A stretch of 64,000 nucleotides of DNA from Alloascoidea hylecoeti (GCA_001600815.1 BCKZ01000021.1:1-64000); one strand, 5' to 3'; shown: positions 1 through 27,390, counted from the stretch's first letter. The notes: generated by a model not told the origin, from the sequence alone. Numbers and translations are program-made.

Positions 1-91
1 CTTATTTTATACTAACTATTTCAAACTTATTTTATTATTTTTATTATTTATTTTTTACTATATTTTGTATAAAATTCTAAAATAGCGAGAA

Positions 92-245
92 TGTTGAAAC
101 TATATTTAGAATTATATAATTATCTTATTTATATAGAATACATAGTAAAAAGAAATATAAAAAGAGAAGAAATCCTCCTCAGGATTTCTTTCTCTACCCT
201 TTATCTTATTCATATTCTTAACTATTAAAAGTTAAAAGTTTTATA
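92..245 (+). repeat. 3' LTR, family A (about 155 bp)
   Basis: Starts TGTTGAAAC after purine run GAGAA; similar copy at 1979-2144; contains TATAAAA and hairpin AAGAAATCCT-cctc-AGGATTTCTT. Confidence 0.8.
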
Positions 246-535
246 GTGAAGGCACGAAAAATGGTTTATTTATCAGAAATTTCTTACAAGAAATGAATCT
301 TAAAATGGAACCGTTGAAAGTAATTAATGATAACATGAGTGCCATATCATCAGCAGATCACTACACTTCAAAGAATAAGCATATAAACATAAAAGTATTC
401 TTTACACGTGAACTGGTAGATAAAAAGGAAATACAATTATTTTATGTACAATCAGAAAATAACTTGGCTGATACTTTAACCAAAAGTTTAGACAAAAATG
501 CCTTCTTTAAACTTACAAATCAAATTATTAACTAA
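246..535 (+). pseudogene. Copia RNase H 3' fragment, 5'-truncated at the LTR junction
   Basis: EGTKNGLFIRNFLQEM...KHINIKVFFTRELV...NLADTLTK; near-identical to 3478-3767. Confidence 0.9.
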
Positions 536-826
536 TTACTCTTTATCTATTAATTTTATTTTATTACTGTTTTTATCTTATCAAAATTATCTTACTGTTA
601 TTACTAATTTTATCTTATTACTATTTATCTTATTAAGAATGAAAAACTATTATCTTATTTTTATTACTACACAAAATTATCTTATTAAGAATTAAAAATT
701 ATTATCTTATTGTTATCTTTATTTTATTATTATTCAAAATTATCTTATTTTATCATTATCTTATTAACGCCCATTTTTCTTTAACTACATTTATATTATT
801 TAATCATTTTTGAATATTAAAAAGAA

Positions 827-994
827 TGTTAAAAAATAATATTCAACAATAAANTAAATATTAAATAAACTATATAGATATATAAGAAAAATGAATATAA
901 AAGAGACTAAATCCTCCTCAGGATTTAGATCTCTATCCTGTTTATCTTATTACCATCTCTTACTACTAAAAGTGAAAAATTTACAAAATTAATA
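827..994 (+). repeat. 3' LTR, family B (about 170 bp)
   Basis: TGTTAAAA...TTAATA after purine tract AAAAAGAA; near-identical copy at 4065-4236; hairpin CTAAATCCT-cctc-AGGATTTAG. Confidence 0.8.
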
Positions 995-1176
995 GCTGAT
1001 CACTACTGTAACCGATCGAAGCATATTGAAATTAAATGGTTCTTTACTAGGGAATTGGTTGAAAGAAAAGAAATTGAATTATTTTATATTCAAACGACCA
1101 AAACATTTCAGATCCTTTAACCAAAAATCTGAACAAAATACAATTCCAAAAACTTATGAATCCCCTTATTAATTAA
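995..1176 (+). pseudogene. Copia RNase H C-terminal fragment of a second family
   Basis: ADHYCNRSKHIEIKWFFTRELVERKEIELFYIQT, frameshift, then DPLTKNLNKIQFQKLMNPLIN*. Confidence 0.85.
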
Positions 1177-1379
1177 AAACTAAAATCATTTATCTTATTT
1201 CTTATATTTTACTCTTTATCTTATACTTATATTAAGCTTATTTTATCATTACTTATTTTTATCTTATACTTATGATATTTATATTTTGTTATTCTTCAAT
1301 CTATCTTATTAAAAGAATCTTATTTTAATTCAAACTTATACTGCTTATTTTATATTCTTATTAAAATTAAACAAAATTG

Positions 1380-1382
<3 letters not shown>

Positions 1383-1477
<95 letters not shown>

Positions 1478-1837
1478 NNNNNNNNNNNNNNNNNNNNNNN
1501 NNNNNNNNNNNNNNNNNNNNNNNNNNNNNNNNNNNNNNNNNNNNNNNNNNNNNNNNNNNNNNNNNNNNNNNNNNNNNNNNNNNNNNNNNNNNNNNNNNNN
1601 NNNNNNNNNNNNNNNNNNNNNNNNNNNNNNNNNNNNNNNNNNNNNNNNNNNNNNNNNNNNNNNNNNNNNNNNNNNNNNNNNNNNNNNNNNNNNNNNNNNN
1701 NNNNNNNNNNNNNNNNNNNNNNNNNNNNNNNNNNNNNNNNNNNNNNNNNNNNNNNNNNNNNNNNNNNNNNNNNNNNNNNNNNNNNNNNNNNNNNNNNNNN
1801 NNNNNNNNNNNNNNNNNNNNNNNNNNNNNNNNNNNNN

Positions 1838-1931
<94 letters not shown>
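1383..1931. repeat. (TTA)n microsatellite spanning an assembly gap (Ns at about 1478-1837)
   Basis: Perfect TTA repeats on both sides of the N run. Confidence 0.97.
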
Positions 1932-1933
<2 letters not shown>

Positions 1934-1978
1934 TTATTGATTACTTTACAATTTGCATATGCCTTAAAATACTGAGAA

Positions 1979-2144
1979 TGTTGAAACTATATTTAACAAC
2001 ATATGCAAATTAATAATATCTTAATTTATATAAGTTAGATAGTTAAAAAGTAATATAAAAAGAGAAGAAATCCACCTCAGGATTTCTTTCTCTATCCTTT
2101 ATCTAATTCATATTCTTAACTATTAAAAGTTAAAAGTTTTTTAA
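1979..2144 (+). repeat. 3' LTR, family A, second copy
   Basis: GAGAA-TGTTGAAACTATATTTA start and 3' part match 92-245. Confidence 0.8.
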
Positions 2145-3767
2145 GCCATGCAAATGGAATTACAATCACTAAGAGATCATGAAGTATATACTGAATCAAA
2201 AGAAAAGGTACCAGAAGAAGACATAATAAGATCAAAATGGGTATTTACATTAAAAAACATAAAAGGTCTACCTGTCTATAAAGCACGTCTGGTATGCAAG
2301 GGCTTTACTCAAATGAAGGGTATCAATTTTAATACCACATATTCACCAGTCTCTTCATATGACAGTTTTCGTACTCTTCTTGCCATTCACACTCAACATC
2401 CAGAACATGTAATGGTCCAAATAGATGTTAAAACAACTTTTCTACACTCTAAATTATCTGAAACTATCTTTGTTAAGCCACCCCCTGGTTCTCGTGCTAC
2501 CCCTGGCTCTCTTTGGAAATTACACAAAAGGGGTTTGAAACAATCTCCAGCCAATTTCTTCAACACATTCTCCAAAGTACTAAAACTTATTGGTCTCAAT
2601 CAATCTACCATTGAACCATGTACATTTTACAATACTCAGGTTAAGATGATCATCTATGTTGACGACGGTATGTTATTCGGTCCAAAAACCGAAATTGATC
2701 AAATTCTAAAAAGACTGAATATATATTTTGAACTGAGTGATTAAGATCTTGCTTAGTATAACTTTTTGATATTCATTCACTTTTTCTTTATCTAGTTTTT
2801 CAGATTTTTCTTCAAAAGGATCATAATCAGTTGGTAGAGGAGTCTTATGTTTAAAATTCAGTTGGATTTGATCATGTTCTTGTTTAACTTTTTCCAAATA
2901 GTCTTTCAAACTGAGTTTGATTGAACCTCCCTTCAATTTGAACAAGAACATGATCAAATCCAACTAAATTTTAAACATAAGACTCCTCTACCAATTGACT
3001 ATGATCCTTTTGAAGAAAAATCTGAAAAATTAAATGAAGAAAAATTGAATGAATATCAAAAAATTATGGATATTATGAATTATACAGTATCAACTGTTAG
3101 AATGGACATTGCTTATGCTAGCTCAATGCTATCTAGAAAACTTAAGAGTCCTACTAAGCAAGATCTTAAAATGAGTTATAGAGTTCTAAATTACTTAATC
3201 AATACAAAAGAATTTGGAATTACATACAAGAATAATCAAGAACTTAATCTACCAATAACACAAGAATTATTCATGAGAGAAAAGAAGCCTCAAAATTTAT
3301 CATTACCTGAAAATAATGAAATTAAAGTTGTGACTGATGCAAGCTGGGCTGATAATAAATCATATCACTCAAATTATGGTTATATGACCTTTATCAACAA
3401 TAATATGATAAGTTTTAAAGCTAAGAAAATAAGGAATATTACTCTCTCTACCAGTGAATCTGAGCTTGTTGGAATCTGTGAAGGTACAAAAAATGGTTTA
3501 TTTATCAGAAATTTCTTACAAGAAATGAATCTTAAAATGGAACCGTTGAAAGTAATTAATGATAACATGAGTGCCATATCATCAGCAGATCACTACACAT
3601 CAAAGAATAAGCATATAAACTTAAAAGTTTTTTTTACATGTGAGTTGGTAGATAAAAAGGAAATACAATTATTTTATGTACAATCAGAAAATAATTTGGC
3701 AGATCCTTTAACCAAGAATCTAGACAAGAATGCTTTTTTTAAACTTACAAATCAAATTATTAATTAA
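2145..3767 (+). pseudogene. Copia RT-RNase H remnant interrupted by an inverted segment (about 2744-2935)
   Basis: SKWVFTLK, YKARLVCKGFTQ, IYVDDG, then RMDIAYA, TDASWAD, LSTSESE, KHINLK. Confidence 0.92.
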
Positions 3768-4064
3768 TGATTCTTTATTTTAAAATCTACTGATCTTATC
3801 TTATCACTTTCCTTATCTTATTAGAATTATTTTATTACAAGAATTTTAAATTATTATCTTATTGCTATTACTCTTATATTTATAAATATTCAAAATTATC
3901 TTATTAAGAATTAAAAATTATTATCTTATTGTTATTACTCTTTTATATTTATTTTATTAATATTCAAAATTATCTTATTATATCATTATTTTATTAATGC
4001 CCATTTTTCTTTAACTACATCTATATTATTTAATTATTTTTTGAATGTCACATATTAAAAAGAA

Positions 4065-4236
4065 TGTTAAAAAATAATATTCAACAACAAAATAAATATT
4101 ATTAAATAAACTATATAGATATATAAGAAAAATGAATATAAAAAGGACTAAATCCTCCTCAGGATTTAGATCTCTATCCTGTTTATCTTATTACCATCTC
4201 TTACTACTAAAAAGTGAAAAATTTACAAAATTAATA
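4065..4236 (+). repeat. 3' LTR, family B, second copy
   Basis: Near-identical to 827-994. Confidence 0.8.
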
Positions 4237-5217
4237 CGGACAGCACTTTGTTGATATTTATGCACCCGTTTGTTCATATGAAACTTTAAGGTTTATTTTG
4301 AATTTCACCGTACAGAATGATTGGCAACTTTGTCAGTTTGATGTTTCAAATACTTTTTTGCATGGTGATATCGATTATGAAGTTTTCATGGAACCTCCTG
4401 ACGTATCTCATATTAACAAAGACAAATTATGGAAAGTCAAGAAAGCTGTTTATGGTCTGCGTCAAAGTCCTAATCTCTGGTTTGAAACTCTTGCTTCTAC
4501 TCTTAAGGAAATGGGGTTTACACAAAGTGATCTAGAACCCTGTCTATTTAGCAAAGTCGATAGTCTTATTCCAGTTTATGTGGATGACTCTTTCATTGCT
4601 GCTCCCAATAGTCAAATATTGAATGATATCAAATCAAGAATCAAGCAGAAGTTTCCTATTAAAGACCTTGGTTTCCCTAGCACCTTTTTAGGTATGTCAA
4701 TACCAGAACCTCTTCCGGTGGAATCAAACTATCTCTTAAGGATTTTCTTACTAAACTTGAAAGTGATTACCAAATTGTTAAAGGTAAACAGTTGCTTACT
4801 CCTTTAGTTAAAGGTTTCAATCCATATGAGTCCTCAAAACCTTTGGAAACTAAAGACATCAAAAAATATCAATCAACTGTTGGAGTTATCAATTTCATTT
4901 CAAATACCGCTAGACCTGATGTTTCTTTTGCTGCTTCACTTTCATCACGGCTTCTTGTTACTCCCAACGTTATTCATCTTAAGGTTGCTTATAGAGTACT
5001 CCAATATCTTGTTCAAAGTAAGGAAAAGGGAATCTGTTATGAAAAGAACTCACCATCTTTACCCTATAAAGACTTTAGATACTTAGACACAACCAAGAAC
5101 GTTTCTATTGTTGACTATCCTAGACTTGGCAAATACACTATCACTGCTGTTTCTGATTCTGATCATGCTGCTGACGTCAATGACCGTCTCAAACTGGTCT
5201 ATATTTTAAGAATTTAA
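4237..5217 (+). pseudogene. Copia RT remnant of a third family, frameshifted
   Basis: YAPVCSYET, QFDVSNTFLHG, YGLRQSP, VYVDDS, frameshift near 4695, then TARPDVSFA and SDSDHAAD. Confidence 0.9.
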
Positions 5218-5301
5218 TGGAAGAACTCAAGTTAGATGTGTCTTATATTGATTTAGTAAGTGATAACAGATCTGCGTTAATCCTGGTCGCACATAAGTAT
5301 A

Positions 5302-5560
5302 ATCATTCAATATTTGATTATTGGGAGCAGCAATGAAAGAGTCATCCACATAAACTGGAATAAGACTATCGACTTTGCTAAATAGACAGGGTTCTAGATC
5401 ACTTTGTGTAAACCCCATTTCCTTAAGAGTAGAAGCAAGATTTTCAAACCAGAGATTAGGACTTTGACGCAGACCATAAACAGCTTTCTTGACTTTCCAT
5501 AATCTGTCTTTGTTAATATGAGATCCGTCAGGAGGTTCCATGAAAACTTCATAATCGATA
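5302..5560 (-). repeat. Inverted duplicate of RT segment 4369-4627
   Basis: Minus-strand translation differs from the plus copy at only four residues. Confidence 0.93.
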
Positions 5561-5569
5561 GATCGTACA

Positions 5570-5840
5570 AGCAATCATGGATACATAACTTTTCTAGAAA
5601 ATAACATAATAAGCTGGAAAAGTCAAAAAATATCTTCAATAAATCTTAGTAGCTAATATATCAGCTAATAAAATAAATGTTATAAATGACAATCAATCTG
5701 CTTTAATTATGAGTGCTCATAGTACAGGTAGAAATAAGCACATTGAATTAAAGTTCTTTTTCACACGACAACTTATAAATAAAGCTTCACTATATCCAAA
5801 CACAACTACTTATATTATGAACAAAATTATGAATTAAAAT
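5570..5840 (+). pseudogene. Degenerate copia RNase H fragment
   Basis: SNHGYITFLENNIISWKSQK and GRNKHIELKFFFTRQLI separated by deletions; followed by a TATCTTA-rich UTR and an LTR-like relic at about 6150-6240. Confidence 0.75.
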
Positions 5841-6244
5841 TATTATTTATTTTTAAGAAATGTTATCTTAATTGGTTTTCTTATCTTATCAATCCTTTGT
5901 TTTATTTTATTTCATACTTATTTTTATCTTATAAAATCATTGTTATTTATTTAAAAATCTCTTAAAACTTATCTCAATATATTTTTGTTCTTTAAATGTT
6001 AATTTTACTCATCTTCTTATTTTAGTTATATTTATCTTAAAATACTTATTTTTCTTATATTATATCTTATCTCAAAATGCTTATCTCAAATATCTCAAAG
6101 TTTATGTTATTTATTCCATAACACTTATTTTATATTTATTAAAAAAAAAATTGTCAGATTTAGTTCTCTACCCTTTTTATCTTTTTCTTAATACAATTTT
6201 TATATTACTATATTTACAACTAATTACAACTTACAAATTTTCTC

Positions 6245-7340
6245 AATCTGTCACAGTTTGATGTCTCCACTGCCTTTCTGAATTCAGATATACATCACAC
6301 GGTTTCTGTTAGACCACCGGGTGTTCCTGTTTCTTCCGGAAAAGTCTGGCTATGTAATCGTACCATTTATGGACTTCGTCAAACGCCAAAAGAATGGTAT
6401 GAGACATTAAAATCTGCACTTGCCAAGTTTAATCTTATTTCAACAATTGTAGATCCGTGTTTCCTTTATAAACCCGGTACAAATATCAGGGTTCTTATCT
6501 ATGTAGACGATGGATTAATCTGTGCTAATTATTTGGATACTATTAAGATTCAGAACTGTCTATCAGAAGTATTCAAGGTTGAATATATAGGTTTTCCAAA
6601 AATGTTCTTAAGTATGGATTTTAGGGATAATACTTCAAATTCATTAAAAATATCTTTAGAATAGCACACCAAAAAGATACAAGAAGAAAAGAAGTTATAG
6701 GACATGAAGGTATATAAAAATCCATTACCTGATAATTATAATCCCAGAACAGAATCAAAACTATTAACAATAGACAAAATTAAGATTTACCAACAATTGA
6801 TTGGTATTCTAAACTATATGGTTAACACTGTTAGAGTAGATCTTTGTTTATACTTGCTCAAAAACTTGCTACTCCTACTGAATCTAATTTAAGAATGGCT
6901 TATAAACTTTTGAGGTATGCAACCTGGGCTGATGACACAGAAAATAGGAAATCACAATATGGATTTCTAATGTTGTTGAACAGAAATTTAATATCATTTA
7001 AATCAAAGAAATTGGATAACATAACTTTAAGCACTTGTGAATCTGAATTTGTGCATTATCAGATGCTCTTAAACATACATTAGGTATAAAGAATCTATTT
7101 ATGGAACTGGAAATGATAAATATAAAAATCAATGGAATTAATGACAATATTTCTGATCCACAAATTGGTTTAAGAAAAATCAAACACATTGATTTAAGAT
7201 ACTTATTTATATTAGAAAAAATAATATTAGGTATAATGACCTTATTTTATATCAACACAAATAATAACTTAAGTGACTTTTTAACTAAGCCATTAGGTCA
7301 TATCAGATTTCAAGAATTAACTTCCAACCTAATATATTAA
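6245..7340 (+). pseudogene. Heavily degenerate copia RT-RNase H (outermost element)
   Basis: QFDVSTAFL, IYGLRQTPKEW, LIYVDDG, TVRVDL, WADD, STCESE, KHIDLRY, NLSDFLTK in several frames. Confidence 0.88.
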
Positions 7341-7783
7341 ATGAATTATTATATTTAACTATGAGATTTAAAAATACTTTTATTTTATTCTACTTTGTTG
7401 TGGTTCCAATTCATTTTAAGCTACTCATTTTTTAAAGAATTATAACAAAATTTTCTAAATAAACTTTTCATTATATTAAAGGCATTTAAAACGAATTCAA
7501 ATTATTTTATTTATAAAAATTTATATCTACTTTTAAGCATTTCATATTATTTATTGTTATCTGCTATTATTTTATTTTACATACTGTTTTTATCTTTTAC
7601 ACTTTATGTTATTATCAAATCTTCAAATTAAAATCTTTCTTTTATTTTTATTAAAACCTTATTTTCATTAAACATATACTTTCAATGATTATTTTGAAGA
7701 AACAAATATTTATATTTAAAAACATATTTTATTTTATTAATTGTTAATTTCATTCATGTTTTATTATCAGAATTATAAGAGGA

Positions 7784-7946
7784 TGTTGAAATATTGTACC
7801 AAACAATGTTTCATAATTCACTAATAATACATAATAAGAGATACCAATTTTATATAGTTAGATAGCTAAATTTCAGTCTAAAAGAAGAGTCGAATCCTGA
7901 TTTGAATTTGTCACTTTACCCTTTTTATTTTTACTTTACTTCCACA
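7784..7946 (+). repeat. 3' LTR, family C, closing the cluster
   Basis: Polypurine tract AAGAGGA followed by TGTTGAAA...TCCACA; 3' part (TACCCTTTTTAT) resembles family A; right end approximate. Confidence 0.6.
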
Positions 7947-8499
7947 GTACTATTGTTAAGATTTGAAAAAGTATATGCGCCAAGCCTTTAAATCAAAAAA
8001 TATTTATATTATATGGAACTCTGAGTCTCTGAATTTTATGGTATAGACTAAAGAAGGCCATGCCTCAGTGTATATATGGGTAGAGTAGTTGGGTGTCCTA
8101 GTGGGTGTTATAAAACCGCCAATATTTTGTTGGGTAAGAAAAACTGCTAAATCCAAGTTTTACCCGACTGTTGTAGTGTACCACATAGTCGAGTGAAATT
8201 ACTATACCTGTACAATCTCCTGAGTCGCAACAATGTTAAAATGTAGAATATTTACTATCGTTTATAAAGATTGAGCTTAATAACAGATCTTACAATTGAA
8301 AGAGCGAATGAAAAAAAACACTTCAACGATATTTAAAACGAATAAACTAATCAATACGTACAAAAATAACTATTAAACTTCTCTTTAAAAAATTTAATAA
8401 AAAATATAACAATAATTGTTCGCATTCTTCTTTGTTTATGAGATCCAAGTAACATCGGCTATACTGTTTTTATACCAGTAATAACTCACTATAGATTAC

Positions 8500-9854
8500 T
8501 TAAGCTCCTTGATATAATGCATAAGATAAGTTAAGTGGCCTATTACCATACTCATATCCAGCAAATTTACCAATAGCAAGTTCCGCAGTAGATTGAGTAT
8601 CGAATTTAACGACACCAGAACCAGCAGACCTCCCATTTGACTCATATTTAATTTGAGCTCTTTCAACTTTACCAACTATTTCAAAAAGATCAATTAAATC
8701 CTGATTTGTAGTTGACCAGGGTAGATTACCAACAAAAATAGTATCACTAGGCTCCCCATTACCTTTAATGCCATCAGTGAATGGATCTGCGGGTACTCTT
8801 TGAGATGAAGGATGAGAAGGAGCGTGGGTATTAGAAGTAAAATTGTGAGAATCTGCAAATCTATCCTCTCTAACTTCAATTGCTCTACCATTTAACTCAT
8901 AACCATTAAATAAAGAAATAGCATTTTGAGCATCAGCTGGGGATTCAAAAATTACAATTCCATTTCCCTTTGAACGACCATCGGGTAAAGTTTTAACATC
9001 AGCACGAGCAATACTTCCTGCTTCACGAAATAAATCTTTTAATTCTTTCCAACCAACACTATATGGAAGATTTCCAACAAACAATTGAGTACCTTTTTCT
9101 TTAGGCTTCTCGGATCTAAATCCGGTATTGGATCTGGTGTTGGAAGATGCAGCATGTCTTGGGACACGATCCTTAAAATTTAAAATACTGTAAGAAATTA
9201 TATAACGGCGATCAAAAAATCAAACAAACAGACTTACTTCACGAATAAAGATTTGACGACCTAACAATTCAGTATTTGAAAGGGTTTCAATGGCATTTTT
9301 TGCTTCTTCAGCTGTAGCATATTCAACAATTCTGTATGATAATTAGATCATTACTCAGATTCCAACTCATATAACTAACACAATGAAATTCGATTTCAGA
9401 TCACTTACCCACAGCCCTAAATAAAAGCATTTTTAATATATATTCGTAACGAAACAAGCAAGACTGTATAAAACACATACCTTTGATCTCCCGTTGAAAG
9501 TTTTCAACACATCAGCAAAAACAACTTCCCCAGCTTGGGCAATATATACATTAGTATTTATGATATTAGAGTAGTTAGGATAAAGCATACCTTGTCTCAT
9601 ATAATCTTTGAGATCCGTCCATCTAACCTCATAAGACAAATTTCCAACATAAACTCTCTTGTCTTGTTCACCTTCAGCACTCTTTTCGACGACCCCGGAA
9701 GGAGACTTAATTCACGGTTAGACATCAGAAGACTCGTTTAAGAGAAACCAACAAAAATTGAACCATACCTCTCCATTAAATTCAGCTACAATAATCAAAA
9801 CGTTAGGATCAATTCAGCAAAGGTAACAAGCAAGAGAACAATTAGCTTACACAT
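8500..9854 (-). CDS. GBP2: Three-RRM poly(A)+ RNA / G-strand binding protein Gbp2/Hrb1, 7 exons
   Basis: Spliced model MSEFNGESPSG...[26 protein letters not shown]...SKGCGIVEY...[18 protein letters not shown]...FVGNLPWST; six GT-AG introns keep the frame. Confidence 0.88.
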
Positions 9855-11292: not shown

Positions 11293-11438
11293 TGCGTGTA
11301 GAAGGCCTGTATATTATTATTCTTTATTAGAAGGTATGTATAAACCCTTATTGTTACAAAGAAAGGTCCCCTGTATGTACGGGTGTATGGTATGTTCTAT
11401 TGAAAAATGATTGGATATTCTATATTTCATACATCAAC

Positions 11439-14229: not shown

Positions 14230-14415
14230 TGAGTTCGTCTAACTATTCCCCCCACAGATTTCCATGGTTTGTAACACGACCCTAATCGTCCAGCATCTTT
14301 ATATTTATCGAGGCCGTAAAGCTCTTTTGTCGAAGAAATACAAATACGACACCATTCACCCAGACACCTGATAATCACAACCCTAGCATCTGTTGTCTCG
14401 ACGTCCCGTTAAACA

Positions 14416-15981: not shown

Positions 15982-16423
15982 TGTTGTGGAGATTCTTCAA
16001 TGAGATTGTACACTAATAAAATGTTACTTATAAATTATAGTAGAGAAATGACCTGCAGCTGCTTATCAAGGCAATACATTGAGATTAGACAGGGTAACAC
16101 TAAAACCTGAGTTCATACGCATTTTCACTACGCCTACCAGCTAATTATTACATAATATGATATGTATAATGTATAAGTTATATAAACTAGTTATAATTAC
16201 TAAATAATGACACTCAAATCAAAACCTAGGTATATGAATATAATGATGTACTAAATGCTTCAAATGTGGATGCCAAACATGATTAAACCCAGTTTAAATT
16301 CAAAACAGGTGAAATAAAATAAACTGCAATTGCAAAATAATTGATAGTCAGAAACTAAAAGTAAAAAATCAAATAAAAATATTAATAAAATACATGTTAA
16401 GATGAACATTTAACACAAATAAC

Positions 16424-19400
16424 CTAAACATATTCTGCTTTATTTTCAGAATCCCCAAACGATAGGGTATTAGTTATAGTATTGATTAGATAGCCATATG
16501 AATCGAGATCGGATTCATAGTCCGAATTTTCTTTTTGTTTGGGCGTTGTTTCTGTGTCTGTGAGATCCTGCTCTGGTTCTTTTTCTAAGACCTCTTCGTC
16601 TGTAGAGTCATCGTACTCAAGAATCTTGCCATATTTCCTTCTGGTACCTTTAGTACCTTGAAATTTGAAAGGTTTTGCTACTTCATCAAGCCTGCTTGGT
16701 GAATACCACTCAAGTAGATTTTTAGAGTCATTATTATTAGAATATTTATCTGGGCTATCTGCTGGTAGAATGCTGGACGAATAGTCTGTAACCCAATCGG
16801 AACTTGCATTTGACGAGCTTTTAACCATACCATAGGTTTCATCATATTCATTATCCGCATCAGTGTATAATGAAGTTCTTTCATAATTATTATTCATAAC
16901 AATTGAATCCATATTATTCGTATTATAACGATTGTTAGACACGGTGGGGAAGGAGGCTTCGTCTAATTGCAACCTCAGTTGAATTCTTGGCGATTCAACA
17001 TCTGCATAATCAACCGATAAAGAAGACAATGAACTAGATATAGAAGCTGAACCACCTTGAATATAGGTGTCATTACCATTTTCAGTTCTAACTACTGTTC
17101 GTTCAACATCGTCATCATCATAAGCTGATACATTTGGTGTTTCGAATACACCGCTCTCTATATCTCGTTCCATTTGGAGTCTGGATTCAAAATCGCTGTC
17201 GCTATCACTAGAGCTTAATATTTCAACATTGCTGCGTACCTCATCATCGTCATAACATATTGCTTTCTGTTGCTCATCCTCTGGTTCCTGCTCAAAATAT
17301 GGCATATCATCACATGATAATCTTGCAGTTAATGGAATATCTGTATCGCCATACGGCCTTGCATTTCTATGGACATCAACTGATAATCGGGTCTCACTTT
17401 TGATCGACATTGTTCTGTCATATGTGTTCGATGGAATAAGCGCATTCGGGTTAAAACCTGTACCCAATGAAGATCTTCTGTATGGCATTGAAGAAGGTTC
17501 AGGTGCCGAAACAAAGCGCCTACCAGTGTTTGGGGCAATTAACATTGAAGCGGTCCTGCTTTCCATTCCGTCGTTGTTCAATCTGCTAACCGAAAACGAG
17601 TCACGAGGGCTAGGATCCCTTGTACCACATATCTCATTTCTTTTTGAAAAATTCAAATCAGGCGTAGTAGCTTCGGTCACAAAGCTTTGTGTAGAAGAAG
17701 CACTGGCGTCACTAAAATGAGAAGACCCGCTCACGGGTATGGTATCAGGCGCAACTAAAGTGTCATCATTATTTTCTGAGGTTAATTTGACACTTGAATT
17801 CTTAGAAGAGAGCTCAGAAGGAGCACTAGTAACCCTTGTTTTCTTCTTCGGTTTCAACCTTAAGGAACTTGAAGAAGAAGCTATCAATTTTCTTTTGTGA
17901 TCTTCGTCCTCCATGTGCTTCTTAGTAAGTGAGAGAGAACGACTAAGAAATGATTTCACTCTGTACAACAAAGGTACAGAAGATTTTCGGTTTTCTCTAG
18001 GTGCAAAAGATTGTGTATGTCGTATAGGAGGTGGCATTGACACCGATGCTTCAATCGGTGAAAGTGAAGATTGAATACTTGATCTCTCCCCCGGAGTAGG
18101 AGACAAGATAGATGAAACTCCCGAGAACCTTATGCTAAGATCCATTGATTCAGATGGATACCTTACAGACATAGTCCTCAAGTTGATCTTTTTTCTGGAT
18201 TCTTGCATTAATTTAGTTTGAAACTGGTGGTCTAACTTCTCAATATAGGTAAGCATTTCTGTTACTAATAGTTGATTTCCTTTTATAATATCACCCACAA
18301 TCTTTGAATTTTCTGGAGATAAAAATAATCCATAAGCCTTTGAAATTTCCTTTACCAAAATCGAAGCAAATTCACTTTTCAAAGCAATTTCACGGAAAAT
18401 AGTGCCTGCTTTTGTTAAGCCTAAAATCTTTACCTTCTCTTCCTCCTCATCTTTATTATTGATTTTATTTGAGACAGTTGAGCGCTTATCAGTAGTAAAT
18501 GAAACTGAATAGCAAGCGAACAATTCATTTTCATCTAAGAAACTCATATCAATATCTACATTAAGGAGTAATGCAAAAGGGCATTTTCTTTCTTCCTTCA
18601 AGTATACATCATACTCATGAGCCGTAGAATATAATTTCACTTCTTCTTCCTCTTCTTCTTTACCATAAGAGTCCTCATCATCTAGTTGCCCAGTCATTTG
18701 AAATAAATGCAAGGGTTCAGTTTTACTTAAAACTTTTGCTTTTGTGATTAACTCTACAAATTTTCTGGTATCATTATATTTATTGACATTTCTAAATTTG
18801 TACAAACGTAGATGCTCTTTACATCCTCCATCTGATTGAATTCCTTGATCTTTAACGAATAATTGTAAGCATGTGCCATTGTTGTACGAAGCCGCAAAAA
18901 CGTCCTTAATTGAGGCCCAAGCATCTACTTGCAAAGACGGTAAATTTTTCAACGGTTTTTCAGACGTTAACGAATGCATTAAAATGTCAGCGATAGATGG
19001 CTTATGAATCGTTGGCGTATAATTATCATCGACTTTTAGGATTAATATGTGATCACTGAATAAAATGAGAACGTCAAGCGTTGGAGAGACTTTTGATGAT
19101 ACTGGCGAGGAGTTGGTAGCAGATAAAAGGGAATATTTCAAGTTAACAGCATCCACTATTGTTACTACACGTCTAGAAACCCACCCATATTGTAATTCTT
19201 CGGGCCAACCAGTTGCCAATTCAGTCAATATTTTTCCCGTGGGTGTGACTACGCGCCTGTGATATGGTTTCAGGGATGCCTGTGCAAAATCGTCTATCGT
19301 ACCCACCGCCGATTTATAATAAGAATTCACTAACTCAATTTCATCTTCTAGCCATTCTTTCTGTTTCATTAGTCTATCGATTACCAACTTTAGCCTTGCT

Positions 19401-20521
19401 AAATTTAATGAGCTATGTATTATTGTTTCAATGTGGGCTGGGCTATAATAAGATACTGTGTTTGAGTCATCTGTTAAGTAAGGCAATAGCATATCGTATA
19501 TTTCATTCAATTTAATGGTGAAATTTTTTGTGGCAGCTTCATGTCTCATATATGCTTTGTAAAAATAAGGAATTGTAGAGCCACATGCTTTTATTACCTC
19601 GAATGCATCACGCTTATTTGCAGATTGTAAGGATTCCAAGAAGATGCAATTAATCCTAGTGACTTCATCAATTGTTGGAGGGAAAACAGAGTTTAGTCTT
19701 GAAAGAGAAATGAACGGTATTTCATTATTCATAGCACGAGCTCTTAATGGGACGACAAAGTCCTGTAAAAAAGCCACTAAACTATGCGTGAAGTTAGTTT
19801 GAATATCTAGCAGTTCATTGCATATGGGCTTAACAACTTCGGTGTCCTCTTCATATCCATTCAAAGAAGATGAATCTGATGAGGTCGATGGAGGGTGGTA
19901 TATTTTTTCAGTTGGTTCTGGAGAGTATTCAGTTAGAGGGTCGAAAAGTTGTTCTAATTGTTGACCCATAAGATACACAAGGGCGTTATTCTGTTTAATC
20001 ACAGCAGGGTCGTTCTTATAGATAACATCCAACAGCAATGAGTTTGCAAACTTCTCTGAGAAGAAGCCAAATTGAGAGCAGATATTGCATACAACCTTTG
20101 AAATATTGGGAACCTGAGATTTTCTGAGAGTAGCGGCGAATTCTCCGGCCCAAGTTTCATCAAATGTAGGAGGGTGACCAGTACTAGTTCGTGTTATGGA
20201 CTGCTCGAGAAGGGAAGATCTAAGGGAAGAGTTCATGGTTGCATAGCATCTCAGGATGGCGATGGCAAGGGCCCGCCGTTCACAGTCCATCTCCATGTCC
20301 GGAGGAAGGTTTCGGACAGCAGGGAAATACCTAGATCTCTCCGTTAAGGTCATGTTGCGAAAATGGGATGCCCCATGGTAGGACACCAGGCACACGCTGG
20401 CTGTGGAGGCCTGGGAATCTGTGTCATATAGCAGCACACATAGGTTTCCAAGAACGGGGTCGGAGCCGGAGTATACAGCACCGTTCTGCTCTAGAGATTC
20501 AGGCACAGTTGGAGAACTCAT
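16424..20521 (-). CDS. BUD3: Bud site selection protein Bud3 (DH/PH Cdc42 GEF with long disordered tail)
   Basis: GQQLEQLFDPLTEYSPEPTEKIY, FPPTIDEVTRINCIF, TPTGKILTELATGWPEELQYGW; divergently transcribed from NFS1. Confidence 0.93.
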   Translation of the reverse strand: MSSPTVPESLEQNGAVYSGSDPVLGNLCVLLYDTDSQASTASVCLVSYHGASHFRNMTLTERSRYFPAVRNLPPDMEMDCERRALAIAILRCYATMNSSLRSSLLEQSITRTSTGHPPTFDETWAGEFAATLRKSQVPNISKVVCNICSQFGFFSEKFANSLLLDVIYKNDPAVIKQNNALVYLMGQQLEQLFDPLTEYSPEPTEKIYHPPSTSSDSSSLNGYEEDTEVVKPICNELLDIQTNFTHSLVAFLQDFVVPLRARAMNNEIPFISLSRLNSVFPPTIDEVTRINCIFLESLQSANKRDAFEVIKACGSTIPYFYKAYMRHEAATKNFTIKLNEIYDMLLPYLTDDSNTVSYYSPAHIETIIHSSLNLARLKLVIDRLMKQKEWLEDEIELVNSYYKSAVGTIDDFAQASLKPYHRRVVTPTGKILTELATGWPEELQYGWVSRRVVTIVDAVNLKYSLLSATNSSPVSSKVSPTLDVLILFSDHILILKVDDNYTPTIHKPSIADILMHSLTSEKPLKNLPSLQVDAWASIKDVFAASYNNGTCLQLFVKDQGIQSDGGCKEHLRLYKFRNVNKYNDTRKFVELITKAKVLSKTEPLHLFQMTGQLDDEDSYGKEEEEEEVKLYSTAHEYDVYLKEERKCPFALLLNVDIDMSFLDENELFACYSVSFTTDKRSTVSNKINNKDEEEEKVKILGLTKAGTIFREIALKSEFASILVKEISKAYGLFLSPENSKIVGDIIKGNQLLVTEMLTYIEKLDHQFQTKLMQESRKKINLRTMSVRYPSESMDLSIRFSGVSSILSPTPGERSSIQSSLSPIEASVSMPPPIRHTQSFAPRENRKSSVPLLYRVKSFLSRSLSLTKKHMEDEDHKRKLIASSSSSLRLKPKKKTRVTSAPSELSSKNSSVKLTSENNDDTLVAPDTIPVSGSSHFSDASASSTQSFVTEATTPDLNFSKRNEICGTRDPSPRDSFSVSRLNNDGMESRTASMLIAPNTGRRFVSAPEPSSMPYRRSSLGTGFNPNALIPSNTYDRTMSIKSETRLSVDVHRNARPYGDTDIPLTARLSCDDMPYFEQEPEDEQQKAICYDDDEVRSNVEILSSSDSDSDFESRLQMERDIESGVFETPNVSAYDDDDVERTVVRTENGNDTYIQGGSASISSSLSSLSVDYADVESPRIQLRLQLDEASFPTVSNNRYNTNNMDSIVMNNNYERTSLYTDADNEYDETYGMVKSSSNASSDWVTDYSSSILPADSPDKYSNNNDSKNLLEWYSPSRLDEVAKPFKFQGTKGTRRKYGKILEYDDSTDEEVLEKEPEQDLTDTETTPKQKENSDYESDLDSYGYLINTITNTLSFGDSENKAEYV

Positions 20522-20721: not shown

Positions 20722-22353
20722 ATGATGAGACAATACATATCACTACAAAGGCTAGCATGCGCAAAGCCCCTTCAATGGTACCTGACCCGTTCATTGTCAA
20801 CGGTTCCTCACAGACAAGTGTTTGCTTCTCATAATCTATCTTCATCTGCTGTCGAACAGACGAAGGCAAAAAGTGAAAAATTGCTTGAAAAATTGTCAAA
20901 GGTTACTCCTCCCCCTGGCTCCTCTGTCTCACTGAACCAAGCGAAGCATCCCGGTCAAGGCTCAAGACCGATTTATTTGGATATGCAAGCTACCACTCCA
21001 ATGGACCCAAGGGTTTTGGACTATATTTTACAGTTTTATACTGGCCTTTACGGAAATCCACATTCAAGAACACATGCCTATGGTTGGGAAACTGATAAAG
21101 CAATAGAGGAAGCAAGAAGTCATGTTGCTTCTCTCATCAATGCTGACCCGAAGGAAATTATTTTTACATCCGGTGCAACTGAATCCAACAATCTATGTAT
21201 TAAAGGTGTTCCCCGTTTCTATAGCAAGACAAAGAAGCATGTTATAACAACACAAACCGAACACAAATGTGTACTGGATTCTGCCCGCCATTTACAGAAT
21301 GAGGGATTTGATGTCACCTATTTGCCGGTGAATAACAAAGGTTTAATTTCATTGGAGGAACTGGAGAAGGCAATTAGACCAGATACAGCCCTTGTCTCCG
21401 TTATGGCCGTTAACAACGAAATTGGCGTAATTCAACCCATTGAAGAAATTGGAAAGATCTGTCGTAAACACAAGATCTTTTTCCATACTGACTGTGCCCA
21501 GGCTTTTGGTAAAATACCTTTAGATGTCAATAAAATGAATATTGATTTGATGAGTATCTCTGGCCATAAAATTTATGGTCCAAAGGGTGTTGGTGCTTGC
21601 TATGTTAGAAGAAGACCGAGAGTCAGACTAGAACCAATCTTAAGTGGTGGTGGTCAGGAAAGAGGTCTAAGAAGTGGAACCGTACCGGCTCCTCTTGTTG
21701 CTGGTCTTGGCGAAGCTTGTAGAATAGCAAAAGAAGAAATGGAGGTGAGTTATTGTTATATTTTTCGATTTTGTGATGATGATTCATCTTGCTATGATTT
21801 AGATGTCATATTGGATCTCTCTAATCTCTTGAGTCCGTCATGATGACTATACTTTTGCAGGGGGCTGAACAATTATTTTTATGAATAACTACTTTTTTAT
21901 AATGTCAGATGAACTAACATTTTTTAATAGTATGACTCAAAACATATCAAGCGCCTATCTGACAAGCTACTGAATGGCCTTTTGTCGATGGAACATACAA
22001 TTAGGAATGGTGATCCAGAGCACTCATACCCAGGTTGTGTTAATGTTTCTTTTGCTTATGTTGAAGGGGAGTCATTAATCATGGCCTTGAATGATATTGC
22101 ATTAAGTTCTGGTTCTGCGTGCACTTCTGCTTCACTAGAACCATCATACGTTCTACATGCTTTAGGATCTGATGATGCTTTGGCGCACTCTAGTATTCGT
22201 TTTGGGATTGGTCGATTTACCACTGAAGAAGAAGTAGATTATGTTTTAGAAGCTATTAAACAGAGGGTTGACTTTTTGAGAGAATTATCACCACTTTGGG
22301 AAATGGTTCAAGAGGGAATCGATTTAAATTCAATTGAATGGTCGGGGCATTAA
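20722..22353 (+). CDS. NFS1: Cysteine desulfurase Nfs1; one intron at 21745-21930
   Basis: [45 protein letters not shown]...CTAAC...TAG intron joins EEME to YDSKH. Confidence 0.98.
21771..21872 (+). ncRNA. Intronic box C/D snoRNA, predicted U6 snRNA 2'-O-methylation guide
   Basis: Box C ATGATGA 21776-21782, C' ATGATGA 21840-21846, box D CTGA 21865-21868, terminal stem TTGT/ACAA, guide CTTTTGCAGGGG 21852-21863. Confidence 0.72.
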
Positions 22354-22814: not shown

Positions 22815-23921
22815 TCATAAATCTATTTTTTTTTTAAAAATGTCCTTAACAGCAGAAGCAATAGCATCCCCAACCTCAATGGTTGAGCTCTTGCCACCTA
22901 AATCACCAGTTCTAATACCTTTAGAAATGGCTTGACTAACTGCTTTTTCAACAACGTCTGCTTCATCTTTAAGGTTCAAGGAAAGTCGTAACATCATAGC
23001 GACAGATAAAATAGTAGCAACTGGATTGACCTTATTCTTTTCCAAGTCTGGAGCAGAACCATGGCATGGTTCATATAGACCAAATGCTTCATTTGTATCT
23101 GGTAAAGAAGCCAAAGAAGCAGAAGGTAATAAACCCAATGAACCGGGTATAACACTAGCTTCATCTGAAATGATATCACCAAACATATTTGAAGTAATGA
23201 TGACACCATTTAATTTTGTTGGGTTTTGAACCAAAATCATAGCGGCTGAATCAATCAGTTGATGTTGAACAGTTAATTGTGGGAATTCCTTGTCAATTGT
23301 CTCCTGGACTGTTTTCCTCCATAATCTACTAGAAGCCAACACATTAGCCTTATCAAGACTCCATACTGGTAATGGAGGATTTGATTGTAAAGCAATGAAA
23401 GCAGCCATTCTTGTTATTCGTTGAACTTCAGGAACACTGTATGTTTCGGTATCAGAAGCAATACCGGATCCATCATCTTCTTTTCTCTCACCGAAATAAA
23501 TACCACCAACAAGTTCTCTAACAACAACAAAATTTGTACCTTTGACAACTTGTGGCTTTAAAGGTGACAAATCAAGTAAAGAATCATCGGCAAAATTGCA
23601 AGGTCTTAAGTTGGCATACAAGTTTAATTCCTTTCTGATTTTTAAAAGACCTTGTTCAGGTCGAACAGCACCAGTTCCCCACTTTGGTCCACCTACTGCA
23701 CCAAGTAAAACTGCATCTGATTTTTTACACTTTTCCAAAACATCATCAGGTAATGGAGAACCAGTAGCATCAATGGCAGCACCACCGATGAGACCTTCTA
23801 TTAATTGAAACTTAACATCACGTACTTCCTCGATAGCCTTTAAGACCTTAATAGCTTCAGAGACAATTTCAGTGCCAACATGGTCACCTGGTAGAACAAC
23901 AATTGATTTAGTTACAGTCAT
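22815..23921 (-). CDS. LEU2: 3-isopropylmalate dehydrogenase
   Basis: [61 protein letters not shown]. Confidence 0.98.
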
Positions 23922-23973
23922 GATATTTCAGTTGTGAAGGAAAATCGATGGTTTGCAGGTGGATCATAAGCAA

Positions 23974-24017
23974 TTTATATAATGATTTTCTCTGTGACTC
24001 AGACGGGCCGTAACGGC
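23974..24017 (-). promoter_or_regulatory. LEU2 promoter: TATA, Gcn4 site and CCG/CGG zinc-cluster-like palindrome
   Basis: TATATAA at about 23974-23981, TGACTCA at 23995-24001, GCCGTAACGGC at 24007-24017. Confidence 0.6.
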
Positions 24018-24189
24018 TTTAATTAACCTTGTGTTTACCCGGCCTCAATCCACCATACTTATTACTTATAATTAAGTTTACATAAAGGGAACATTTATAA
24101 ATTTTATAGTATTCCGAAACGTGAAAATATAGATATCGATAATAATAATTGAGAGAAAGAACTAAAAGATATATATCCTAGGTTACAAT

Positions 24190-25893
24190 CTAAAAGCCAT
24201 GCTCGCCAGCTTCGCATACTTTAATAGACCTACCCCATTCGCTATTTAAAACCTGCTTGGCAGTAATTCTTCTAGATGGAACAGGATCCAAAATAGAGTA
24301 AATGACATTCCTACACCTTGATCTCTTCAGTTGCTCTATAGGCTCATAACCGCCCTCGCTTTTCCGGCCCTCAAGATAACGTTTATAAAATTCATCCTCA
24401 TCAGCAATTGCAACATGCCATAATTGACGGCCAGTTCTCATAGCCATGTAAATAACACCACAAGACCAAACGTCAACTGGACGAGGGTCAAATTCATCGT
24501 CTGTGTATTCTTCCGGGGAAATATAAGGTGCAGATCCACAAACCCCAGACGATTTATGAACCTCTTTTTCCCAGGCAATTCTAAAGCACTCACTATTACC
24601 AAAATCAGTGACTTTCAGAGATCCGTTAGCAGATAACAATAGATTTTCAGGCTTCAAATCACGATGAACAACCCCCATTTCATGCATATACATTACAGCT
24701 TTCATTAATTGTTTGAAAAAGCAGTCAGCTTCGACGGCTTCTAATTTACCAGCAGAAACAATTAAACTGTATAAATCTCCACCTGTACAAAACTCCATGA
24801 CTTGACAAAAATCACCCTTTGCATCCTTTAACAAATCAAGGGTTCTGATTATATTCGGATGGTGTAAGCTAGAGCTAATGCAAAATTCACTTGTGAGTCT
24901 TCGATTATATTTTTTCTCATTTTCTTGTGGTTTCTTTCTGAATTCTTTAACTGCAAATAGTTGTTCATCGCCATCGACATGTTTATGAGATACACGAACA
25001 ACACCGAATGCACCTCTACCAATTTCTTCCTGGCAACGACCATACTTTTCAGCAAAAGATCGAGGATCTAGAATGGTTGTTCCCTCTTTTCCATCGGGCA
25101 TATCTTGACCAATAATACCATTAATTTGGGGGGAATTATTTTCTATGTTATTTGAATCCTGGTAAAACCCTGGCAGAGCTGAAACAGCACCATCACGAAG
25201 CTTCTTAGCACCTAAAAAATCTTTTATTATACTACCGAATCTTTCTTGTCTCCTTCTATTTTTAAGGTAATGTTCATGCTTACCATTTTCGAGCAATTGA
25301 AATCTCGGTACACCCTTATCTCTTGCAGAGGCCGTAGAACTACTCTGAGACCGAGATGAAGAAGTAGAAGCAGATGATTCAGATCTTTTAACAGTAGGAG
25401 GACCCAGGAGATTTTTGATTTCTTGATGTGTTGACCCCTTTTCCTCTGGGTGTTTAATGGATTTGACTGATTTTGTACGATTTGAGGCATGGTGTTGCTG
25501 TTGCTGTTGAATTTGAGACACTTCACCTTCTTCTGGGAAAACCGAAAGACTTATAGTGGATTTGACACTTTTATAACTTCTTTCGCTTGAGGTACTATTT
25601 GACCTATTTTTTCGTGAACGATCACGAGAAGGTTGTCGTTGGAACTCCACAGCTTTTGAGGCTGAAACATTTGTGCTTAGAGTGGTTGAGGTAGAACCAC
25701 CAACAAGTATTTTCGTGAGTTTACTTATAGTAGATCTCCTTGGTGCCGTATCTTTATGATCCTTAGACTGAGTGGATTGGGCGGGACGCTCAGTTTTTGG
25801 AATAACACCTTTTACATCCGGGCGAAACGATGCATCTTTAACTGAATTTTTCGCTGACGTTGTGGAAGGGGGAAGAGCCGAGCTTGGACCCAT
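24190..25893 (-). CDS. SAT4: Hal4/Sat4-family Ser/Thr kinase
   Basis: KYGRCQEEIGRGAFGVV, RLTSEFCISSSLHHPNII, DFGNSECFRIAWE, EFDPRPVDVWS, VCEAGEHGF. Confidence 0.9.
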   Translation of the reverse strand: MGPSSALPPSTTSAKNSVKDASFRPDVKGVIPKTERPAQSTQSKDHKDTAPRRSTISKLTKILVGGSTSTTLSTNVSASKAVEFQRQPSRDRSRKNRSNSTSSERSYKSVKSTISLSVFPEEGEVSQIQQQQQHHASNRTKSVKSIKHPEEKGSTHQEIKNLLGPPTVKRSESSASTSSSRSQSSSTASARDKGVPRFQLLENGKHEHYLKNRRRQERFGSIIKDFLGAKKLRDGAVSALPGFYQDSNNIENNSPQINGIIGQDMPDGKEGTTILDPRSFAEKYGRCQEEIGRGAFGVVRVSHKHVDGDEQLFAVKEFRKKPQENEKKYNRRLTSEFCISSSLHHPNIIRTLDLLKDAKGDFCQVMEFCTGGDLYSLIVSAGKLEAVEADCFFKQLMKAVMYMHEMGVVHRDLKPENLLLSANGSLKVTDFGNSECFRIAWEKEVHKSSGVCGSAPYISPEEYTDDEFDPRPVDVWSCGVIYMAMRTGRQLWHVAIADEDEFYKRYLEGRKSEGGYEPIEQLKRSRCRNVIYSILDPVPSRRITAKQVLNSEWGRSIKVCEAGEHGF

Positions 25894-26397
25894 ATATTGT
25901 TATTGGAAGAACAAACGAGCAAAAAGCAATAACTGGAAGACTTCTAGCCTTACTATGTGATAAAACAAAGGTGCGGGAACAATGGACTCTTCGTGGTAAT
26001 ACCCAAGAGAATAAGTAGTAGTAGAAAGGGAGGAATAAAAGCTTTTTAAGCAGAAGTTTCGGGGATCAGGCCGAGAGATGCCAGGCAGCAGTGGCTACAA
26101 AAATTCGGACCCGGGACGGCAGAAACGAGAAATGAGGAGGTTTGGGGGTTGGAAAGGGCCACTTAAAATAGTAAGACAAGAAGCAGAGGAGGAGAAAGGA
26201 GGAAGAGCAGAAATTCGAAGAATATTATATTAATATAATTTTAAGCGGAGGAGGCAATTGGTGATGTCATAAAATGTTTTGTTCCTGTTTTTGGCCTGTA
26301 ATGCAGCTTTGTATTGGTGCACGTGATGCCATATTTATATCTATAGCTATAAGTTTATAAAACATAATATACAAGCAATAAATATATTCTGTAGTAT

Positions 26398-27390
26398 TCA
26401 ACCTGTTTTCAACGTTTTGTGGGCTGGTATCCTGTGACGTAAAAATACAGAACCAGATCCTCTTATTGAAGTAGAATGCCTAGAGTCCTCAGGAATGTCT
26501 TCATTTTCCTCTATAATTGTGCCGATGCTGCCTTCAAATATAGATCCCGAAGAATTAGGCTGTGATCCACGTTGTTCATAATCTTTCTCTAAGTTCGAAG
26601 ACGACTTGTTGTATCCATATCCATCATCATCTTCATAAAAAGTCGTACCATCAATCAAGGAGTTCTGTTGTGGATTGTTAAGCCCGCCAGGTTGGAAAGT
26701 CGATAGTTGTTTTATGGGCGATAAGTCTAGATACTGGTGGCCATATTGACTATAATCCTTTGTAACACCAGCACCTTTAGATTTTAAATATGGTTTAACA
26801 TCATTACTAGAGTTCACATTCCCGGAAGATTGTGAAATACCATTCAATTGCAATGTTATCTTTTGTGCTTGCCCCGTGCCTTTAAACGTCACAAATCTTT
26901 TAATCAGTAATATTAATATCCCTGTAATTACACCGGTACATAATCCCATGATAGTAGCCGATCCCAGATATTCGTAGCCTAGGAGTAGAGTTTCCGATAA
27001 ATCTGTTCGCTTATCATATCCCAATTTTAACGGCAGTAGCAAGGGAAACATCACAGTATAATATAAAACTGTCAGAAAATTGATTAGCGGGAGTAAGAGT
27101 ACATATAACACTGTCCCAATTATATGTATCAACGTTATTGTAATAGTAACTATTGGTGATATAAGTCCTCTACTTATGATACACGATATTAACCATAAGA
27201 GCCATTTACCAGAATAAAGCAAACCCATTAAAGTCTGCCCCACAGCAGCATATAGAAGATAGCCTGTTCGTCTCACACAGGATAGTAACGGATAAAGTAC
27301 ATATGATGACAAATGAGTACCAAATACCTTTAACTTATCAAGTAAATTTATTGTTTTTTCAAAAGATCCAATATCATTAATATTGGCCAT
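26398..27390 (-). CDS. Membrane protein with hydrophobic N-half and Ser/acidic tail; possible Ldb16 homologue
   Basis: Long ORF; FPLLLPLKL...YEYLGSATIMGLCTGVITGIL resembles the Ldb16 transmembrane region as recalled; lies among CEN3-linked genes. Confidence 0.55.
   Translation of the reverse strand: MANINDIGSFEKTINLLDKLKVFGTHLSSYVLYPLLSCVRRTGYLLYAAVGQTLMGLLYSGKWLLWLISCIISRGLISPIVTITITLIHIIGTVLYVLLLPLINFLTVLYYTVMFPLLLPLKLGYDKRTDLSETLLLGYEYLGSATIMGLCTGVITGILILLIKRFVTFKGTGQAQKITLQLNGISQSSGNVNSSNDVKPYLKSKGAGVTKDYSQYGHQYLDLSPIKQLSTFQPGGLNNPQQNSLIDGTTFYEDDDGYGYNKSSSNLEKDYEQRGSQPNSSGSIFEGSIGTIIEENEDIPEDSRHSTSIRGSGSVFLRHRIPAHKTLKTG

Follow-up and report, generated by a model that had tools for sequence, protein, structure and literature searches.

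Retrotransposon clusters are among the forms that yeast centromeres are known to take, and two recent surveys describe the systems closest to the locus analysed here. Hession et al. (2025; PMC12711049) mapped the centromeres of nine species by Hi-C and report that centromere location is conserved across three orders while centromere structure changes. In three Phaffomycetales CEN1 is flanked by RER1 and SSL1, the ancestral position (Anc_CEN1) is placed between DOM34 and MRPL32, every centromere of Cyberlindnera sargentensis carries a Ty5-like cluster of dead elements, and near-centromere rearrangements are mostly small inversions (PMC12711049). Haase et al. (2026; PMC13017519) describe centromeres of the Ty5-cluster type in seven orders, which belong to two sister classes, and link these clusters to the same ancestral genes; they date the common ancestor to 247-311 million years (Myr) and infer that Ty5 clusters are the ancestral state that gave rise to point centromeres. 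Their survey covers 77 species from 7 of 12 orders, with Ty5 called by tblastx to the Ty5 of Saccharomyces paradoxus or to SaCEN-Ty5, and the main text makes no mention of Alloascoidea or Sporopachydermia (PMC13017519). A literature search combining Alloascoidea with centromere returned nothing relevant. Here we describe a nest of truncated copia-type retrotransposons at the left end of a stretch of 64,000 nucleotides (nt) from Alloascoidea hylecoeti (GCA_001600815.1, BCKZ01000021.1:1-64000), called the window below. We give slightly better than even chances to the view that this nest lies at or directly beside the centromere of its chromosome, in a position that would be homologous to the ancestral centromere behind CEN3 and CEN14 of S. 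cerevisiae.

The nest occupies positions 1-7975 and is gene-free and AT-rich. Per-kilobase GC content (1-kb bins) is 0.20-0.31 across window 1-8000, except for a value of 0.096 in the bin holding a 360-N assembly gap (1478-1837), and 0.28-0.45 in the 56 bins to the right of the nest; the longest open reading frame (ORF) within 1-8000 is 240 amino acids (aa) long. At least six copia-type units are present, all on the + strand and all without Gag, protease and integrase. Since the nest extends past the left edge of the window, 8 kb is a minimum size, at least four times that of any other interval between annotated features in the window (the runner-up is ~2.1 kb). The Pfam domain RVT_2 (copia-type reverse transcriptase) matches 4 of 10 translated nest fragments, with E-values of 4e-43 to 1e-20.

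The boundary of this debris is sharp: at least six insertions lie inside 8 kb and none in the following 56 kb. A BLAST comparison of the nest with 8001-64000 gave two matches only, both low-complexity, and a retroelement domain was found in none of the 58 intergenic ORFs of 8001-64000. Scans of the window for tRNA genes and for Rfam families gave no hits. The locus thus combines retroelement and long terminal repeat (LTR) debris with an unusually long gene-free AT-rich interval, as a retrotransposon-cluster centromere does. A reading of the same DNA made earlier from the sequence alone (hereafter the sequence-only reading) had described an 8-kb gene-free, AT-rich copia cluster beside genes, and the GC, ORF, RVT_2 and LTR results all agree with that description.

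The longest nest fragment, used as a query, retrieved a homologue (P0001) that is 93% identical to it. P0001 is an intact, unbroken protein of 1500 aa, for which a separate contig of 5.2 kb codes. Its features are a zinc knuckle (by eye), a beta-barrel domain in the protease region, an integrase core at 476-640 and RVT_2 at 1017-1233, which make it a single-ORF copia element with the order Gag, protease (PR), integrase (IN), reverse transcriptase (RT) and RNase H (RH). A tblastn search of P0001 against the window defines the unit map. P0001 aa 1-993 have no match anywhere in the window by tblastn; the units span aa 994-1500, and each consists of a truncated pol, a 3′ untranslated region (UTR) and an LTR, as follows.

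1-245, + strand: unit X, with the end of a 3′ UTR (1-91) and LTR-A1 (92-245); the element extends to the left of the window.
246-994, + strand: unit U1, with an RNase H end at 245-532 (P0001 aa 1405-1500, 99% identity), 3′ UTR and LTR-B1 (827-994).
995-2143, + strand: unit U2, with a frameshifted RNase H end at 995-1170 (~aa 1441-1500, 68%), 3′ UTR and LTR-A2 (1979-2143).
2144-4236, + strand: unit U3, with RT at 2145-2735 (aa 994-1192, 88%; RVT_2 E-value 3.2e-34), an inverted arm at 2757-2957 (aa 1268 back to 1202), forward sequence at 2934-3764 (aa 1224-1500, 93%), 3′ UTR and LTR-B2 (4065-4236).
4237-6240, + strand: unit U4, with RT-RH at 4238-5049 (aa 1052-1324, 36-40%; RVT_2 E-values 4e-43 and 1.2e-20), an inverted copy at 5311-5547, an RNase H end at 5570-5792 (aa 1369-1467, short matches of 46-61%), 3′ UTR and a partial LTR-D (~6137-6240).
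6241-7975, + strand: unit U5, with RT-RH at 6254-7334 (aa 1085-1499, 33%, several stops and frameshifts), 3′ UTR and LTR-C (7784-~7975).

Identity to P0001 drops toward the gene side, from 99% in U1 through 88-93% in U3 and 36-40% in U4 to 33% in U5. Units at the inner end resemble one another: by BLAST, 27-245 (unit X) is 82% identical to 1910-2143, and 246-994 (U1) is 86% identical to 3478-4236. U4 represents a different, older copia family, and U5, the most decayed element, forms the right edge of the nest. At least four kinds of element are therefore present (two LTR subtypes of the active family and two old families), with the oldest outermost, adjoining the first gene. Some insertions are still 99% identical to the active element and others only 33%, so that the spot has been open to them for a very long time.

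Six related LTR copies of ~150-175 bp can be aligned together; they have in common a TGTT(G/A)AAA start, a TATATAG box and a short palindrome. Each following unit begins exactly after the last base of the preceding LTR. We read these features as the probable right half of a Russian-doll nest in which age increases from the innermost element to the one beside the genes. The pile may also have grown, whatever its role, as a head-to-tail array of incomplete DNA copies (a 3′ LTR plus variable pol) produced by serial LTR-guided recombination or break repair, which we judge rather unlikely. All five visible unit starts fall within aa 994-1441 of the 1500-aa pol and all six units point in the same direction, a combination unlikely for random nesting (we estimate ~1e-4); with starts in the last third of pol and a single direction, the array stays a live alternative, and it has in its favor also the forward-reverse-forward fold-backs seen in U3 and U4. 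Yet both LTR-A copies share one end base, as do both LTR-B copies, and all four abut different sequence: base-precise ends before four different sequences are the mark of junctions made by integrase. The decay also grows outward, as a nest predicts, and a nest cut through its middle would look identical to the arrangement seen here.

The two fold-backs, in U3 (2757-3067) and in U4 (4369-5560), each involve the unit's own pol sequence. The inverted repeat in U3 (I2) has arms of 133 nt that are 92% identical, and the one in U4 (I1) has arms of 259 nt that are 98% identical, separated by a spacer of 674 nt. That the arms are more alike in U4, although it is the older element, hints at gene conversion between them or at a later event at the DNA level. 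A gene-free region with inverted repeats, as here (I1), is also what characterizes the inverted-repeat centromeres of Komagataella phaffii and Barnettozyma; the arms of inverted-repeat centromeres are, however, 0.5-4.3 kb long (PMC12711049), while those in the nest are far shorter and lie inside one dead element. No inverted repeat spanning the whole locus is visible in the half that falls within the window.

Contigs from independent data support most of this map. The locus is present in four runs from three samples, including one wood-decay metagenome. The U3 fold-back (2379-3208) is covered by single-copy-depth contigs with 0-3 differences in 4 of 4 runs, the U4/U5 junction (5944-6576) by single-copy-depth contigs of 561-655 nt with 0-1 differences in four runs, and the boundary between the nest and the genes by single-copy-depth contigs with 0-3 differences in four runs, a unique contig beginning at 7881 in runs X1, X3 and X4. 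On the contig evidence for these three regions the locus is real. U4 and U5 stand at ~1-2.5x single-copy depth. A 283-nt contig of about single-copy depth, seen in all four runs, matches the 3′ UTR of U5 (window 7253-7613) with 17 differences and with 130 bases replaced by 47; this diverged contig points to a second, diverged copy of the old U5 relic elsewhere in the genome.

A subtelomeric location of the nest, or its origin as an artefact of assembly where a scaffold ends, seems to us highly improbable. Such an origin would fit a window that begins inside high-copy repeats and has a 360-N gap at 1478-1837, as well as the finding that one contig per run overruns the compared stretch, at what is taken as its 12000 end, and none runs past position 1. 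Against it, none of the 14 Tandem Repeats Finder (TRF) rows for the window is a telomere-like tandem repeat, the adjoining genes are conserved, have housekeeping roles and keep the ancestral order, and contigs from the three samples confirm 2379-3208, 5944-6576 and the sequence from 7881 on. The gap itself lies in the 3′ UTR of U2 and is bracketed by pure (TTA)n tracts of ~32 and ~35 units (1383-1477 and 1838-1943); this region is the most AT-rich spot of the nest, and no assembly resolves the tract.

In the wood-decay metagenome (runs X4 and X5) 90% of the sampled words were found, and one 8.5-kb contig could be matched to the window with a single difference over 4.1 kb. A contig this close to identical suggests that the same or a very close strain lives in decaying wood.

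The genes that adjoin the nest are those of the CEN3 left arm, or CEN3/CEN14 flank, in S. cerevisiae. We take them to be, by S. cerevisiae name, YCL001W-YCL018W plus YNL007C; YCL numbers in S. cerevisiae count outward from CEN3. A literature search on these systematic names found no support for the name pairs. The genes in question are the following.

8503-9850, - strand: GBP2/HRB1-like gene with three RRMs (Pfam RRM_1) and several short introns, the first gene beside the nest.
10290-11292, - strand: SGF29 (Pfam SGF29_Tudor, E-value 4.5e-20), with introns.
11449-13070, + strand: PGS1-like phosphatidyltransferase of the phospholipase D (PLD) type, assigned from two weak, sub-threshold PLD motif matches and reading of the sequence; two introns.
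13390-14313, + strand: multi-exon membrane protein with a sub-threshold PQ-loop match only (E-value 0.0039).
14416-15003, + strand: RER1 (Pfam Rer1, E-value 6e-75).
15440-15985, - strand: DUF2015 protein of the YCL012C type (Pfam DUF2015, E-value 6.7e-22), with one intron.
16424-20521, - strand: BUD3 (Pfam Bud3_N and PH_BUD3_C).
20722-22353, + strand: NFS1, mitochondrial cysteine desulfurase (E-value 2.6e-131), in two exons.
22815-23921, - strand: LEU2, 3-isopropylmalate dehydrogenase (E-value 9e-107).
24190-25893, - strand: protein kinase, identified by its C-terminal kinase domain only.
53302-54309, + strand: SIS1-type DnaJ protein (Pfam DnaJ and DnaJ_C).
56564-57997, - strand: STP22/VPS23 (Pfam UEV, E-value 2e-27; Vps23_core, E-value 2e-12).

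Most of the gene list of the sequence-only reading is borne out by domain or homology matches: GBP2/HRB1-like, SGF29, RER1, the YCL012C type, BUD3, NFS1, LEU2, STP22 and SIS1. Its PGS1 has the sub-threshold PLD motifs given above, for its YCL002C (the membrane protein at 13390-14313) the sub-threshold PQ-loop match is the only hit, and its VMA9 was not found among window ORFs of at least 50 aa. The kinase at 24190-25893 had been named SAT4, for which no specific match was found; a PDB search returned generic CAMK, Chk1 and MARK kinases only. In the GBP2/HRB1-like protein, the two C-terminal RRMs match HRB1 RRM2, HRB1 RRM3 and GBP2 RRM3 in order (PDB search). Several introns of 50-65 nt are carried by many of the neighbour genes (intron scan), in line with the intron-rich lineage that had been proposed.

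Compared with the S. cerevisiae gene order as we assume it to be, the block from RER1 to GBP2 runs the other way round, and one of the breakpoints coincides with the nest; a single inversion leaves two small genes unaccounted for. A breakpoint at the nest would explain why GBP2, and not RER1, touches it. The resemblance to the centromeres of C. sargentensis and other Phaffomycetales is close: there, as in the nest, dead copia-type elements and LTRs occupy one large intergenic region beside the RER1-side genes of the ancestral CEN1, with small inversions nearby (PMC12711049). Those centromeres are mapped by Hi-C and have one cluster per chromosome, with RER1 adjacent (PMC12711049), whereas here four genes intervene and the family is common; the host of the nest, moreover, seems to lie outside the Phaffomycetales. 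The Ty5-cluster centromeres, that of Saccharomycodes ludwigii included, are likewise clusters of retrotransposons in linkage with genes found on the flanks of point centromeres (PMC13017519).

The placement of the host was approached through NMA111. Among the matches listed, the best named homologue is from Nadsonia (65% identical), and the Ascoidea protein is 58% identical. A single-gene tree was made by a quick search from 29 rows, hand-picked for taxonomic spread from the 120 listed. In this tree the 16 rows from Pichiomycetes and Saccharomycetes form a clade that excludes the protein of the window (Shimodaira-Hasegawa-like approximate likelihood ratio test, SH-aLRT, 100); the latter groups with Dipodascales, Lipomycetales and outgroup rows. 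The tree is weak evidence that the host lies outside Pichiomycetes and Saccharomycetes, the two yeast classes surveyed so far.

The window also contains a TRAPPC11 (Foie-gras/Gryzun) gene with an intron, at 39895-43460, and a gene for the complex-I subunit NDUFS4, at 51620-52111. Neither of the two is known from Saccharomyces, and their presence fits a lineage far from Saccharomycetaceae. Within window 27525-48409, what we take to be neighbours on the left arm of S. cerevisiae chromosome XIV are kept in long runs: GCD10 with a methyltransferase; NMA111, a TOM70-like gene and NCS2; FYV6, FPR1, EAF7, a NAM9-like gene and SRV2. In a host seemingly so distant, this degree of micro-synteny is striking.

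Two features of the nest favor the view that it is at or beside a centromere: its location, where the conserved CEN1 block ends, and its character as a long-lived and sharply localised sink for insertions. In outline, elements of at least four kinds have inserted, over a long period, into one and the same spot free of genes, and the resulting AT-rich retroelement debris may carry epigenetically kept Cse4/CENP-A chromatin. New elements would either target this chromatin or be merely tolerated there. The flank may have been reshuffled by small inversions, one of them breaking at the nest.

A number of observations weigh against a centromere at the nest. Ancestral-centromere synteny is seen on the right flank only, since the side on which SSL1, DOM34 and MRPL32 would be expected falls left of the window edge, and RER1 is four genes (~6.4 kb) away from the nest instead of next to the centromere as in Phaffomycetales. 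The GC content at third codon positions (GC3) of 25 ORFs or exons is 0.14-0.53, with no trend and no trough toward the nest; the sequence-only reading had proposed a GC3 trough as a check, and the result went against it. No contigs bridging the junctions 245/246 and 994/995 were seen in the runs compared, a comparison in which bases 1-57 and the (TTA)n tracts were left aside as repeats; with high-copy sequence around the gap and no bridging contig, the order of the left 2 kb lacks independent confirmation. The 3′ part of the U1/U3 family is found at ~40-fold the depth of unique contigs in the same run (340.7 vs 8.49, 2275.4 vs 58.7 and 374.3 vs 9.1), a ratio that should not be taken as an exact count of copies; the genome clearly holds many members of the family, and with its main family at such depth, retrotransposon clusters alone prove little. 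Finally, a conserved centromere position has been demonstrated for classes to which the host does not appear to belong.

The nest may instead be an ordinary retrotransposon sink, where insertions survive only in the dead DNA of a compact genome and the CEN3-type neighbours are a coincidence. The centromere would then lie beyond the nest, outside the 64 kb, or within the gene block in some short AT-rich spacer. We give this possibility a substantial minority share of our belief. The abundance of the main family and the missing GC3 trough speak for it. By a rough estimate, some 10% of the genes of S. cerevisiae are no more than 18 genes away from a centromere, and a chance match for one of many nests would not be rare. 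In addition, had the RER1-GBP2 inversion carried a small centromere with it, that centromere would now sit in the 437-bp spacer between RER1 and the DUF2015 gene (15004-15440) and not in the nest. A mere sink accounts less readily for the confinement of at least six insertions to 8 kb with none in the next 56 kb, for a spot held open over an identity span of 99% to 33%, and for a nest located precisely where the conserved block ends and where the published maps place the centromere (PMC12711049).

The earlier proposal of a retrotransposon-cluster centromere with gene linkage shared with point-centromere yeasts therefore stands in part: the copia nest is real and abuts genes of the CEN3/CEN14 flank, and what tells against it includes the missing GC3 trough, the abundance of the family and the four genes between RER1 and the nest. 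The idea is sound, and its novelty is largely pre-empted by the two surveys (PMC12711049, PMC13017519).

The sequence-only reading had also set the nest beside the Ty5-like copia clusters that mark regional centromeres in Scheffersomyces stipitis, Debaryomyces hansenii and Ogataea polymorpha, with Ty5-clade membership as a point to check. Two features agree with the Ty5 family, namely a copia-type RT (RVT_2) with the order PR-IN-RT-RH, and Gag and Pol in one uninterrupted ORF (in P0001, which is 93-99% identical to U3 and U1). A single Gag-Pol ORF sets Ty5 apart from Ty1, Ty2 and Ty4. The same order and the single Gag-Pol ORF are found in the Ty5 of Saccharomyces and in Ty5.1/Ty5.2 of W. anomalus (PMC12711049). 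As no unit keeps the 5′ internal region, the primer site is unreadable within the window itself. The initiator-tRNA primer motif is absent from the nest and has two matches in the window, both in genes and at chance level. Contigs of other copies, with loose ends at 246 and 995, extend past both LTR types with the same 13 bases, ATTTCCAATCTTT, a string that has no TGG start. These bases presumably fit the anticodon arm of tRNA-Ser(IGA), being its complement when the edited wobble base (inosine) is read as G. The likeness to Ty5 and Ty5-like elements is that the primer site comes right after the LTR and fits a tRNA anticodon arm instead of the 3′ end; the difference is that the 13-base site mismatches the initiator-tRNA site that is diagnostic of Ty5 and presumably fits tRNA-Ser(IGA). 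Self-priming by the 13-base site was considered as well, 10 of its 13 bases pairing with an LTR stretch (by eye), and was dropped as chance in AT-rich DNA.

No named Ty1, Ty2, Ty4 or Ty5 protein is among the 120 listed homologues; the nearest among the matches listed are unnamed proteins at 33-37% identity, followed by plant-type copia and one Metschnikowia protein, and a PDB search gave only distant integrases. We therefore do not file the nest elements as Ty5 in the strict sense: they appear to have a Ty5/copia-like style of priming in which the tRNA is not the diagnostic one, and they fail on the initiator-tRNA primer site.

A more far-reaching version of the centromere view combines these results. 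The nest would be a centromere at the ancestral CEN1 position, the cluster state and the fixed locations would predate the ancestor considered by Haase et al. (247-311 Myr), and the elements, instead of being true Ty5, would belong to copia and use half of a serine tRNA as primer. Taken as a whole we hold this to be doubtful.

What is new in the locus is its host, which by the single-gene tree appears to lie outside the two surveyed yeast classes. Should the nest not be a centromere, the locus would be only a tidy example of a long-lived transposon sink. If the nest is confirmed as a centromere, a lineage outside the surveyed classes would test the age of position conservation and the Ty5-cluster ancestry of yeast centromeres. 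Such a lineage could further show whether Ty5 itself is what matters or whether any copia element homing to centromeric chromatin will do.

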